Both the position numbers and the translations under genes were made by a program. Positions 28,541 to 32,045 of a stretch of 64,000 bases of DNA are shown here, one piece after another. The notes beneath the pieces were generated by a model, which had not been told where the DNA came from, did not search any database, and saw only the letters and a list, made by a program, of their open reading frames with translations. Position 1 is the stretch's first letter. Each line of letters begins with the position of its first letter. Location: the NCBI GenBank assembly GCA_965219385.1, contig CBDCNM010000002.1, forward strand, positions 1,792,936 to 1,856,935, given 5' to 3'. The stretch is from Candidatus Latescibacterota bacterium (GTDB lineage: Bacteria; Latescibacterota; UBA2968; UBA8231).

Positions 28541-30244
28541 TCACCATTTTCTGGTAAAGGTAATCCCCTGTTCGGGATCAATATTTTGGGGTCGCACTAC
28601 AAGGGACTCATGGTTGAGGTTGGATGTTCCGCTCGCTCCTCCGACCGCAAAGTTCATTGATCTGATACTTGGGGCGGAAAAGGAGAAATCCATATCCTCT
28701 GGAAAGGCCGTTCCCCTTATCCTCCACATATTCGGGGCACACTCCAGGGCGCAGAGAATCCGTTCGCGACTCCGCCACCAGTTACCCAACTCCAGGCCTG
28801 TCATGGAGCGGCAGCGGTCGAGGCGGCATCTTGCCAGGAAAGAGGGGTAGAATTGAGCCAAAGATGGTATTGTGAGCGGATCCATGCAGTCGGGATGTAC
28901 CAGTGCGCTGATCATGCCACCGGAGGCTTGCGCAAAAAGATACGCCTCCATTATCCGATGTTTCACCAATTCGGGATCCTCCTCCATATTAAGGAACAGT
29001 CTGTCCATAAAATGAAGGGGAATCTCTACCATGTCCCCGGCTTCACGTTCGGCTGAAAACGGAAAAAACGGCGATGCCATACCATTGCGAAACCCGGGTC
29101 TGTCGCTAAATCCCAGGGTGGCGTCGTAGGTCAGCCCGGCTTGAGAAGCAGCCTCAAGGGTCTTCCCATGGCGAAACATGAGGTAGTGATGTCGAGTTCC
29201 CAACAGCTTGAACCCTAGTCGGCTTTCATAGGTTTCGAGTTGCCGCTTCAATTCGTTCGCGTCGAGAAAGGCCCGCCGGGTCGCGTGCAGGGCGATCTCG
29301 CAGCCGTTTTCCAGAATCCGTCTTATGGCGGAGGTTATTTCCGCCGGGTTCCGGCGATACACCGGATCCATGGCGCCCCTGGGATTGTTGTAATCGCCGC
29401 CAAACGGAGCAAAAAACCACGTTGAGCGAAAACCGTTGGCGCTCTCGAGCAGCAACAGTTCATCGAAATTCCAGCAGGGATCCTCTCCTTTCAGCGCCCC
29501 AGACAGCGCCCCCACCCTTTTTGTGAAACAGTTTCCGCGAAAACGCAGCAATTCCAGGATCGATAACGCAAGTTCATAGGCCACTCGTTTCGCCGTCCAT
29601 TTTTTGACCACATCGACGTCGTAACTCAGAAAAAGAGCCATAGGGGCCGATGCCGGCCAGCGCGGTAGTGAAAAGAGCGGCAGATCGAGTTTTGTATAGA
29701 GATAGCGGATTACCTGGTCGATGAGGTTGAAGTGGAAAGACACGCTGGGTGTATAATATATATTCTCCGACGGTGGGTTGTGGCGGCCGTACTGGTCGTT
29801 TCCGGTGTGCTCTTCGACTGCACCGGATAATATGCGGGTGGTCTCTTTGATGAGATCTGCCGCAAACAACATGGTCGGGGTAGCGCCGATCATACCTTCA
29901 AAAATAAGAGGATCACCTTCCAAGGTTTTTACATAGGGAACAAATTCCTCGAGTGCAACCGACTGCATGCTTGCGAGGATCGGGGTCTTGACCGTCATGG
30001 CCTCGTAGTGATGAGAGCATGACGGTATATCGCCATGGTCGACCGCTGGAATGGCAATCAACGCCCGATAGTGTTCGCTGACGACCCCGAGCGCCTGCTT
30101 GGATGTATTCCCATAAACCAATGCAACGGGTGCTCGGGAACCTCCTTCGTATAAACCGAAGGGTATCCCCGCATGAACTCGAAAGTTTCTCGCGAACGAC
30201 GAGACAGGTCCTTCCGCCGGGGGAATCAGAATCAAGTCAACCAT
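28541..30244 (-). CDS. Polysaccharide deacetylase-like (NodB fold) protein
   Basis: LSYDVD, STWFF, EIALH, GTRHHYL, YDATLG...GFRNG, VEIPL..MD and LVHP. Confidence 0.8.
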   Translation of the reverse strand: MVDLILIPPAEGPVSSFARNFRVHAGIPFGLYEGGSRAPVALVYGNTSKQALGVVSEHYRALIAIPAVDHGDIPSCSHHYEAMTVKTPILASMQSVALEEFVPYVKTLEGDPLIFEGMIGATPTMLFAADLIKETTRILSGAVEEHTGNDQYGRHNPPSENIYYTPSVSFHFNLIDQVIRYLYTKLDLPLFSLPRWPASAPMALFLSYDVDVVKKWTAKRVAYELALSILELLRFRGNCFTKRVGALSGALKGEDPCWNFDELLLLESANGFRSTWFFAPFGGDYNNPRGAMDPVYRRNPAEITSAIRRILENGCEIALHATRRAFLDANELKRQLETYESRLGFKLLGTRHHYLMFRHGKTLEAASQAGLTYDATLGFSDRPGFRNGMASPFFPFSAEREAGDMVEIPLHFMDRLFLNMEEDPELVKHRIMEAYLFAQASGGMISALVHPDCMDPLTIPSLAQFYPSFLARCRLDRCRSMTGLELGNWWRSRERILCALECAPNMWRIRGTAFPEDMDFSFSAPSIRSMNFAVGGASGTSNLNHESLVVRPQNIDPEQGITFTRKW

Positions 30245-30373
30245 TATGAGAGAGTTTGGGCCGAATTCGATGCTGTAGCAGTTGATGCGGCGAGGGGCAC
30301 CAGGGGTTCAATGGCATAAACGTGCAAAGACGGAGGCCCAATTTGCCGAGACTTCAGCCGATCAACTCGCTTC

Positions 30374-30402
30374 AAGATATACCAATCTAACACCTCAGTC
30401 AA
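30374..30402 (-). promoter_or_regulatory. Putative sigma70 promoter of the deacetylase-GT4 genes
   Basis: Minus strand TTGACT-N17-TATCTT; the -35 lies in a CAGTCAA/TTGACTG inverted repeat (30396-30420). Confidence 0.5.
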
Positions 30403-30420
30403 GCACATCAGGGTTGACTG

Positions 30421-30460
30421 AAAAATAAAAAAGCAGCCCTGCGAAAAGCAGGGCTGCTTT
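30421..30460 (-). terminator. Intrinsic terminator (minus strand)
   Basis: 13-bp perfect stem AAAGCAGCCCTGC/GCAGGGCTGCTTT, continuing into a T-rich tail on the minus strand. Confidence 0.85.
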
Positions 30461-30635
30461 GGGGGAGAATCAAGAGTGTGGCGATCGTAGGATGTGATCG
30501 AAAACCGCAACCGAGATCTTCAAACGAGGCGGTGTGGGGAGGTATTGATTTAAAGATCTCAGATACCCGAAAAGGGGAGTTCGAGTTTTGCGGCGTGTTG
30601 GTTCAGTCACGCTCAATAAACCGCCACACTCAAAA
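30421..30635 (-). ncRNA. Candidate structured non-coding RNA (unknown family)
   Basis: Four nested helices whose imperfect pairs are almost all G-U on the minus strand, a C-rich apical loop, a terminator and an upstream promoter; no credible ORF. Confidence 0.6.
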
Positions 30636-30673
30636 TTAAATTATCTAACCTGGTCTTTTTATTAAGTTTAAAT

Positions 30674-30824
30674 ATACACTCTCAAGTGTGTGTGAAGACG
30701 TTCAGCCCAATCGGTCATTTTTTTCTTACACCCTAATTTACGCACACTGGGCTGTGTTGTCAAGTAGAATTTCACTGCCGGAAAGGAAATGAGACCAGGG
30801 GCTGACATACACAAAAGAGTGTAT
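30674..30824. promoter_or_regulatory. Divergent control region with three ACAC-N6-GTGT palindromes and a minus-strand promoter
   Basis: ATACAC-N6-GTGTGT at 30674-30691, ACAC-N6-GTGT at 30744-30757 and ATACAC-N6-GTGTAT at 30807-30824. Minus strand TTGACA-N17-TAAATT at 30763-30735. Confidence 0.65.
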
Positions 30825-30873
30825 ATTTAATTTTTTCTTGCGGCGGGATGTTTTTGAGCTAAATTACACCTCT

Positions 30874-31437
30874 ATGAATAGAGGCGACAGGAAAGACGGT
30901 AAAAACTTTGCGCATATGATTGGGGATGCCCGGAGGAAAATAGGCCTCAGCCAGCGCCAACTGGGTGAGCGGATTCAGACCGCAAAGAGGCCTAATGGGG
31001 TGTGGAATACTTATGTGGGCCAGATTGAAAAAGGTGAAAAGGTCCCCTCGGACGAGGTCGTGCTGAAACTGGCTGAAGTTCTGGAACTGAACTCCGACGA
31101 AGTTCTCGTAGCGGCCTGTGTAGCACGGGCGGAATCCGACGAAGCCAGAGCCTTGTTCAAGAAAATGGAAGGGGTCCTAACCGACCCGGTGGTAGAGCGA
31201 CTCCTCGCAGCGGACGAGCCTCTTGATCCGGGTATTCTGGATGCCTTGGCCGATGAGAATATCCGTGGTGCACTGAAAGAAGAAATGTGGAGCACGGTAT
31301 TTGCGCGGTGCTATCAGAATAGAAAAAAGCGGGATATCCTGGGCCTGCTGGTCCTGGCCGAGGCCATGAGCGACAAGCAGTGGACCGCCATGATGAACAT
31401 CCTCGAAACCATGGATATCGAAGTCTCAAAGGAGTAA
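30874..31437 (+). CDS. XRE-family helix-turn-helix transcriptional regulator
   Basis: ARRKIGLSQRQLGE...TYVGQIEKGEKVPSDEVVLKLAEVL. ATG 30874 is preferred over TTG 30838. Confidence 0.88.
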   Translation: MNRGDRKDGKNFAHMIGDARRKIGLSQRQLGERIQTAKRPNGVWNTYVGQIEKGEKVPSDEVVLKLAEVLELNSDEVLVAACVARAESDEARALFKKMEGVLTDPVVERLLAADEPLDPGILDALADENIRGALKEEMWSTVFARCYQNRKKRDILGLLVLAEAMSDKQWTAMMNILETMDIEVSKE

Positions 31438-31577: not shown

Positions 31578-32045
31578 GTGTTTATTGCATTGAGGTGTGA
31601 GGATTTTGAAGTAGATTTATCGGAGTACATCGAAGGAGAACTGAGTACGGAAACATTCCGGCGCATGGAGGAACATGCGTTGTACTGCCCGGTCTGCAGC
31701 GACACCCTGAGAGGGGTGCTGCAGGTGCGTCAGGCTTTGTACGGTCTGGGCGAGATCAATCCGCCGGCCACCTTCAAACTCGGACTATACAGCTTTCTGC
31801 AGGGAAAGGCCGTCAGACCGCGGCGCCTGTGGGCCCGGCCCCTGGCCGTAGGACTTGCCCTGGCTACGGCTCTGGCCATTTTGCTGTGGCCGGATCAACA
31901 CGATGAGAGGGCCGAACATGCGTCCTGGGATGGGCAGGATCATCTGGCCGAGCGCGAGTTGGGCGGCGTCTGGATCGAGCGTCTGCCCGAGCTGTCGCGA
32001 CCGGGTCCATACTCGTCCGCGCCCGCCCGCGCGGTTTCTTTTTAA
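31578..32045 (+). CDS. zf-HC2 (ZAS) anti-sigma factor-like membrane protein
   Basis: C...LSEYIEGEL...EEHALYCPVC (HxxxCxxC) followed by one TM helix. Confidence 0.8.
   Translation: MFIALRCEDFEVDLSEYIEGELSTETFRRMEEHALYCPVCSDTLRGVLQVRQALYGLGEINPPATFKLGLYSFLQGKAVRPRRLWARPLAVGLALATALAILLWPDQHDERAEHASWDGQDHLAERELGGVWIERLPELSRPGPYSSAPARAVSF

Follow-up and report, generated by a model that had tools for sequence, protein, structure and literature searches.

A conserved structured RNA beside an XRE-type regulator gene in Candidatus Latescibacterota, with a complementary partner RNA upstream of tal and zwf

The C-rich small RNA RoxS of Bacillus subtilis is repressed by Rex and has a sponge RNA, RosA, and in Staphylococcus the small RNA RsaE is accompanied by RsaI (PMC8216469, in its accessible sections). 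The C loops of the actinobacterial 6C or B11 RNA could pair with G tracts in 5' UTRs, with no chaperone known according to the available part of the preprint (10.1101/2022.10.27.514065). The QrrT-QrrX-Qrr1-4 system of Vibrio cholerae combines a transcription-factor gene beside the RNA under its control with a long conserved sRNA-sRNA duplex; QrrT is a LysR-type activator, and both Hfq and RNase E are required (PMC9732341, in excerpt). Synthetic STARs are trans-acting RNAs with complementarity to a linear stretch and to the 5' stem of an intrinsic terminator that precedes a gene; these engineered RNAs span the stem's 5' half entirely, and the accessible text of the preprint on them states that no natural antitermination of an intrinsic terminator by a small RNA was then known (10.1101/022772). 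A review, in its available portion, describes effects of small RNAs on Rho-dependent termination as well as leaky sRNA terminators upstream of genes (PMC6582626). The literature that we searched for a natural STAR, with sources from 2015 and 2019 and few subscription journals covered, yielded no example. The 6S RNA, finally, is a rod with a central unpaired bubble (PMC9130861, in part).

Here we analyze a locus in a 64,000-nucleotide stretch of DNA from Candidatus Latescibacterota (the window), whose genome we term G000 and whose family we term f1. It encodes a real RNA family, absent from Rfam, that is accompanied by a regulator gene dedicated to it and by a complementary partner RNA that is likewise conserved. 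The comparisons that follow hold for the accessible parts of the papers cited above. Like RoxS-RosA and RsaE-RsaI, the system has C-rich single strands on a small RNA that would be under repressor control, and like them it includes a stand-alone complementary G-rich RNA and a link to central carbon metabolism. Our RNA has no sequence or Rfam similarity to RoxS or RsaE; it differs from them in having an adjacent, dedicated XRE gene as its probable regulator and a partner that heads the tal/zwf operon. The partner is about 60 nt long, unlike RosA (about 229 nt), and offers a single match of 17-20 pairs that runs into its own terminator, such that its G-run lies in the terminator stem, whereas RosA's G-rich regions are single-stranded. 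The two C-rich loops recall 6C/B11, from which the RNA differs in its branched 158-nt core with a closing helix, in lacking an Rfam match and in that G-tract targets were not found here. With the Qrr system it shares the transcription-factor gene beside the RNA and the long conserved duplex, the regulator here being an XRE protein with operators in repressor position, in a genome in which no Hfq was found. The partner resembles a STAR target in placing a linear stretch and a terminator 5' stem, both complementary to a trans RNA, upstream of a gene; unlike in STARs, the match is natural, displayed in a loop, and extends over 2-3 Watson-Crick pairs of the stem along with wobble pairs.

Structure, expression and distribution of the RNA

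The RNA unit comprises these elements of the window:

30735-30763, minus strand: sigma-70-type promoter, TTGACA-17-TAAATT
30634-30728, minus strand: variable 5' leader, about 100 nt in G000 and about 0-120 nt in homologues
30474-30631, minus strand: conserved structured core of 158 nt, with a closing helix, two inner helices and a three-way junction
30565-30586, minus strand: side hairpin, the fifth helix, with the C-rich loop CUCCCCUU (0.90 unpaired; C-rich across homologues)
30523-30547, minus strand: apical loop, in which 30542-30523 is complementary to the partner RNA over 20 contiguous pairs
30421-30460, minus strand: intrinsic terminator, a 13-pair hairpin (30460-30430) followed by a U tail

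The initial annotation had placed a minus-strand promoter at 30763-30735 and a strong terminator at 30460-30421 around a stretch devoid of any credible ORF, and all three parts of this picture hold. By itself a scan of this region gives 3 promoter-like sites versus 1.6 in shuffled sequence, which is not above chance; we trust the promoter call because 31 of 32 homologous loci have a TTGAC-16/18-TAnnnT arrangement upstream of their core. The terminator hairpin with its U tail is present in most of 37 loci and was not seen in three. Between 30421 and 30763 the only ORF with an ATG start and at least 10 codons has 16 codons and lies inside the leader, which is nearly missing in some homologues. 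Judging from the -10 box, transcription would start at about 30728, and one RNA contig extends into the leader as far as 30686. As read from the homologous loci, the conserved RNA is the 158-nt core together with the terminator, and a structured RNA on the minus strand at 30631-30421 is confirmed.

All four helices of the earlier drawing are present, namely the closing helix 30631-30619/30486-30474 (11 Watson-Crick and 2 G-U pairs), 30610-30602/30502-30494 (7 Watson-Crick pairs, 1 G-U and 1 C-A), 30594-30588/30510-30504 (6 Watson-Crick pairs and 1 G-U) and 30562-30548/30525-30511 (12 Watson-Crick and 3 G-U pairs). The fifth hairpin, 30586-30565, was missing from it, and the CUCCCC pointed out earlier at 30579-30574 lies in the loop of this hairpin; a further copy at 30462-30467 is likewise present and turns out not to be conserved across loci. 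The C-rich apical loop, annotated as 22 nt long, is predicted to be 0.98 unpaired. As in small RNAs with C-rich seeds, the unpaired C-rich motifs are conserved across homologues. The segment 30421-30730 folds far better than shuffled sequence, with z-scores of -6.56 on the minus and -5.03 on the plus strand; as both strands fold well, this measure by itself leaves the strand undecided. The imperfect pairs over 20 homologues comprise 111 G-U versus 8 A-C, which extends the G-U bias seen in the single sequence and settles the minus strand as that of the RNA structure. The helices also covary: in an alignment of 20 sequences pairing accounts for 96.5% of the cells, and two-sided changes are seen at 14 of 36 pairs, a level reached in 0 of 500 shuffles, in a control that ignores kinship and for a structure derived from the same alignment, while structures slid along it drop to 39-51%. 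Sequence hardly varies in the outer closing helix, which is hence uninformative on pairing. A pairing of the apical loop with the 5' strand of the closing helix was considered and dropped, no consistent covariation being visible by eye.

The RNA was recovered in two of four metatranscriptome runs, all from one sponge study, as contigs inside the unit: 30482-30686 at depth 70 in one run and 30481-30597 at depth 185 in the other. Contigs of the neighboring genes have depths of 2-9 only, in a measure that cannot rank genes. Runs X3 and X4 have no RNA contig over the core, and none of the four runs has one over 29434-30480, gaps to which we attach no weight. The contigs are unstranded and give no ends, strand or level.

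By gathering score only a tRNA of the window matches Rfam, and by E-value the RNA itself has only sub-threshold matches, mostly over the terminator. With 6S included, no family matched, so that the suspected novelty stands, and the partner region has no Rfam match either; the SRP RNA, RNase P RNA and tmRNA of G000 are accounted for at other loci. No description was found in the literature on Latescibacter* with small RNA or 6S RNA, or on XRE with C-rich sRNA. A DNA search recovered the core in 20 of 36 genomes of the same family and in 0 of 24 others. With a covariance model exactly one copy was found in 57 of 76 family genomes (G000 included), all Ca. Latescibacterota, and none in 56 genomes of the class's three other families, and a broader model on a phylum sample detected the core in 46 of the 63 genomes from the family and in none of the 87 others. 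Scanning a species collection for the loop pattern gave 79 loci, 43 of which score strongly with the model, under the labels Ca. Latescibacterota, Handelsmanbacteria, Gemmatimonadetes-type names and uncultured bacterium. The RNA was not found in three near-complete genomes of genus g16, and G017 and G129 lack it as well, its flanking genes adjoining each other there; it is therefore dispensable in some lineages.

The XRE regulator, its candidate operators and a related RNA

Divergent from the RNA lies the gene of an XRE-type protein, with these features in and around the intergenic region:

30874-31437, plus strand: XRE/HTH_3 regulator of 187 aa, with an HTH_3 domain and an all-helical C-terminal part
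30838-30865, plus strand: likely XRE promoter, TTGCGG-16-TAAATT, read from the sequence, with the same spacing in some homologues
30807-30824, either strand: candidate operator O1, just upstream of the XRE promoter
30740-30757, either strand: candidate operator O2, the 18-bp palindrome ACACNNACNNGTNNGTGT, which fills the spacer of the RNA promoter
30676-30693, either strand: candidate operator O3, in the transcribed leader; the best matrix match in the genome (25.4 bits)

Phage switches such as lambda cI and P22 c2 have palindromic operators, divergent promoters and a leaderless cI mRNA, and repressors bind between the -35 and -10 boxes of promoters with a 17-bp spacer. The three candidate operators between divergent promoters give the locus a layout like that of a phage repressor switch. 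The XRE mRNA looks near-leaderless, its predicted -10 box lying 8 nt before the ATG (window 30838-30876). The locus is thus like lambda cI and P22 c2 in its XRE-type HTH, three palindromic operators, divergent promoters and near-leaderless repressor mRNA, and unlike them in that the promoter taken to be repressed drives a non-coding RNA and that the regulator has no peptidase domain. A fold search with the C-terminal part of the XRE protein returned nothing at E 0.001 or below.

The RNA is conserved, and covaries, beside orthologous XRE genes, as had been anticipated. An 18-bp palindrome-like site occurs in all 19 XRE-adjacent loci, where it mostly occupies the promoter spacer; of 13 loci that lack an adjacent XRE, 3 have such a site. 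Its consensus was read from the same loci in which it was counted. A matrix of 36 sites from other genomes gave 18 matches above 12 bits in G000, counted without a shuffle background; the XRE-RNA locus holds the best of them (25.4, at O3, to which one training 18-mer from another genome is identical), together with one of the three that score 16.8 and another at 14.9, and the two best distinct matches in the genome include two sites of this locus. The same scan for a wider XRE regulon in G000 found no cluster of sites elsewhere. From the positions of these sites we infer that the XRE protein probably binds the palindromes and represses the RNA, with this locus as its main target.

In families f2 and f4 the XRE orthologue, the promoter and the palindromes are all shared with f1, while the RNA folds differently and keeps its UCCCC motifs in the same order. 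This form is single-copy in 30 of 132 class genomes, none of which belongs to f1. Models R1 and R3 miss it and model R2 misses the f1 RNA; given this lack of cross-detection, homology of the two forms is argued from the XRE gene, the promoter, the operators and the short motifs. Since these are common and the fold differs, the motifs rather than the fold would be the old feature, and on such comparisons an XRE gene with a C-rich RNA is the older unit. The f2/f4 RNA lies downstream of the XRE-divergent promoter (L145, L147-L152, L154, L156, L157) and has about 230 nt with four to five hairpins, its first loop, CUCCCCAC, being complementary to the 5' strand of its last helix; this might possibly constitute an internal switch ahead of a conserved gene for a 115-aa coiled-coil protein.

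Several further observations concern the surroundings of the regulator. In L158 (G077) and the other g22 genomes (15 of 15) the same HTH starts open frames of 610-670 aa, and in L158 one palindrome lies upstream of this frame and no RNA was found. In g18, g6 and g8 (L132-L136, L138, L139) a conserved A/T-rich motif beginning with TAAC stands between the promoter and the core and resembles IHF or Xer-type sites. At 31578-32045 of the window the XRE gene is followed by a zf-HC2 anti-sigma-type gene, present in some homologous loci only, with no sigma factor adjoining it among the ORFs examined.

The complementary partner RNA and the search for mRNA targets

An ungapped scan of G000 with the apical loop gave a single outstanding non-self match, with a score of 51 (the next has 42); it exceeds the best match of each of 113 shuffled loops (113 of 113), which score at most 48. 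The match belongs to a unit of its own:

G000, contig C2, 1162597-1162698, outside the window: partner unit, between an ATP-cone gene and tal-zwf

This unit consists of a promoter-like TTGACA-17-TAACTT, about 10 nt, the 20-nt match and a terminator, predicting an RNA of about 60 nt. In G000 loop and partner could form 20 contiguous pairs, two of them G-U, at -42.7 kcal/mol, and for 19 of the 20 genomes computed the duplex energy lies between -33.9 and -46.5 kcal/mol. Of 20 fetched pattern loci 18 show the unit and the other 2 are coding matches; 15 further pattern loci comprise 1 partner, 1 other promoter-linked start region and 13 coding-like matches. It stands upstream of tal in 11 of 30 loci (16 are without it and 3 not assessable), is also present in G004 and G023, and in genus g13 occurs at 26 of 26 zwf loci among 31 genomes.

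As in sponge RNAs, complementarity to the seed is conserved, in most genera by comparison of their sequences. In genus g3 a C-to-U change of the loop and a G-to-A change of the partner amount to one compensatory event; the match of genus g9 is interrupted by an internal mismatch, and that of most g13 partners by a bulge. The exceptions are G006 and G022, in which the promoter and hairpin of the partner are kept and the complement is gone. In G010 and G013 the loop is near-intact and no partner was found. Where no partner was found in g18, g6 and g2, the middle of the loop drifts and UCCC and CCUC persist, which fits a role of the loop beyond the partner. In the GT4 tree 10 of 11 partner-less genomes fall on one branch (92/94), hence the co-loss represents two or three events and not a statistic. 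For f2/f4 no partner was found at the ATP-cone site in 5 genomes, nor a promoter-linked complement of the 3' loop, the loop searched, in the 30 of 45 matches viewed, and for g18 none was promoter-linked in the 30 of 35 matches viewed. A promoter-linked search pattern missed the partner in all 10 g13 genomes to which it was applied, 9 of which have it, and the blanks of this pattern in other genomes are therefore weak.

In the tal-linked genomes a second conserved hairpin follows the partner terminator and overlaps the likely tal promoter (G000 contig C2, about 1162705-1162755; L246, L247, L249, L251, L269). A palindrome with a CGCATTATGCG core touches the partner promoter upstream of its -35 box in g13 and g15 (L233-L235, L227-L232), and is a candidate regulator site for the partner. 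G016 has two near-identical partner-tal loci on different contigs (L223, L224), with a longer, U-poor hairpin.

The trans-acting small RNA of the initial annotation fares differently in its two parts: trans action through the C-rich loop appears most likely, and pairing with ribosome-binding sites, an analogy drawn from RoxS and 6C-type RNAs, finds no support in the target scan. Against 4,650 roughly called start regions of G000 the loop scored no better than shuffled loops or than coding regions did, with 8 shuffled loops and a sample of 800 genes as the comparison. The sole attractive candidate, the start region of recA, was rejected, its 8-nt match occurring in G000 only among the 15 of 30 recA loci caught by the motif; target prediction thus yielded no conserved mRNA. 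Two recA genes are present in G000 and in 17 of 19 of its f1 relatives, and one in other families.

Possible circuits and their rivals

The reading that we tentatively favor is that of an XRE-repressed C-rich small RNA acting in trans and antagonized by a G-rich partner, as in RoxS-RosA. The divergent XRE protein would bind the three 18-bp palindromes, one of them in the promoter spacer, and so repress the RNA. When made, the RNA would display its C-rich loops on a closed scaffold, a structure backed by covariation, and these would probably pair with G-rich mRNA sites without Hfq, which was not found in G000 (a 94%-complete genome). The partner of about 60 nt, made from its own promoter, would enter the apical loop through a single-stranded 5' toehold, its free 5' end threading the loop and invading the top of the stem to give a duplex of 17-20 pairs. 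The outcome may be that the loop is blocked, or that both RNAs are sent to RNase III, as RosA does to RoxS; RNase III is present in G000, and a 20-pair duplex would suit it. We favor this antagonist reading since the partner is outlived by the large RNA and by the short C-rich motifs in it; the reading has against it that the G-run half of the partner match sits in the partner's own terminator stem.

Alternatively, the partner would be an attenuated leader of tal/zwf, whose 12-nt toehold and G-run are bound by the loop to cause read-through, which we regard as possible, if on the unlikely side; that it constitutes a chromosomal, naturally evolved STAR, the loop of a repressor-controlled RNA invading the foot of the terminator in the tal/zwf leader, is doubtful. 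XRE would then indirectly control NADPH-producing glucose oxidation by the pentose-phosphate route, or, in a variant of opposite sign, the duplex would trigger cleavage of the read-through mRNA. In all cases in which the following gene was read, this gene is tal, zwf or, in G006, a glucokinase-like gene, and the unit immediately precedes it on the same strand; the exceptions are G094 and G025, where another ORF follows. Blocking the G-run weakens the predicted hairpin of G000 from -24.5 to -9.8 kcal/mol, and those of most of 26 units by about 9-15. The beginning of the U-tract and the zwf start are only 20-28 nt apart in 20 of 26 g13 genomes, with no SD, which leaves little room for a promoter of zwf's own; yet these 20 are close kin, and gene order is conserved in the family anyway. 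Toehold plus 5' stem is the STAR design, and the units without complement keep promoter and hairpin as a cis part should; the overlap of the trans RNA with the 5' stem is, however, partial, with only 2-3 Watson-Crick pairs covered. Also against read-through, the tal-linked genomes have a second promoter-like site past the terminator, resembling that of tal in partner-less genomes (score of at least 8 in 10 of 26; mean 6.0 versus 4.2 in shuffles), and leaky-terminator small RNAs upstream of genes are known without such a switch (PMC6582626, in its available portion). The antagonist and the read-through readings can both hold. Reversing the roles, such that mRNAs are regulated by the G-rich RNA of about 60 nt and the large XRE-controlled RNA serves as a sponge for it, as with QrrT and QrrX, appears improbable. 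A regulator gene beside a sponge gene has a precedent (PMC9732341, in excerpt), the large RNA is a closed scaffold displaying one long loop, and its contigs are deep (70 and 185, versus 2-9 for the neighbors), with the proviso that contig depth cannot rank genes; but the large RNA is kept in at least 10 genomes and in f2/f4 where searches, not exhaustive ones, found no partner, and there a pure sponge would have nothing to bind.

Two further readings do without the partner. An RNA polymerase-binding RNA, a divergent 6S or Ms1-like one, would account for a single copy, a length of 160-200 nt, paired ends, an invariant closing helix and apparent abundance. Rfam 6S (RF00013) was detected in 0 of 132 class genomes, the 6S of the class, if any, thus not having been found, and the zapA (26-nt gap) and ygfA (119-nt gap) sites of G000 have no room for one. 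We nonetheless consider it very improbable: the RNA does not match RF00013 and is no rod with a central unpaired bubble, having a branched fold and a short apical stem; its invariant apical loop has a genomic complement, it has been lost from complete genomes, and f2/f4 have a different fold at the same locus. Equally remote is a cis-acting leader, riboswitch or attenuator, of the downstream gene, which the initial annotation had offered as its alternative. Such a leader would fit the GT4 gene that 35 of 37 loci have behind the RNA on the same strand, frequently 60-100 nt past the core and without an SD, and the three loci without a clear terminator. Yet no conserved antiterminator competing with the terminator was found in 22 loci: pairing of the terminator's 5' arm upstream gains 0.1-6.2 kcal/mol, like shuffled arms, and the terminators, at -12 to -33 kcal/mol, outweigh it. 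A GT4 orthologue is missing from G000 (best 30%), where the RNA is nonetheless intact, G017 and G129 keep GT4 without the RNA, and the f2/f4 form precedes the unrelated coiled-coil gene. In G000 the downstream gene, for which a promoter-like site lies at 30402-30374, encodes a 567-aa product without a Pfam match, so that its earlier naming as a deacetylase is unconfirmed.

The antagonist reading, the read-through reading and the reversed one make different predictions, and cheap ones. With a dedicated repressor, a defined operator, a structured RNA and a partner, the system is small enough to be rebuilt in a laboratory strain or in vitro. If the proposed circuit is true, it would be an RNA regulatory circuit described in a phylum without a cultured member, and regulation by C-rich, Hfq-independent small RNAs and their sponges would extend beyond Firmicutes and Actinobacteria. 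Were the partner instead a tal/zwf attenuator, it would be a natural counterpart of the engineered STARs and a new way of controlling NADPH supply.
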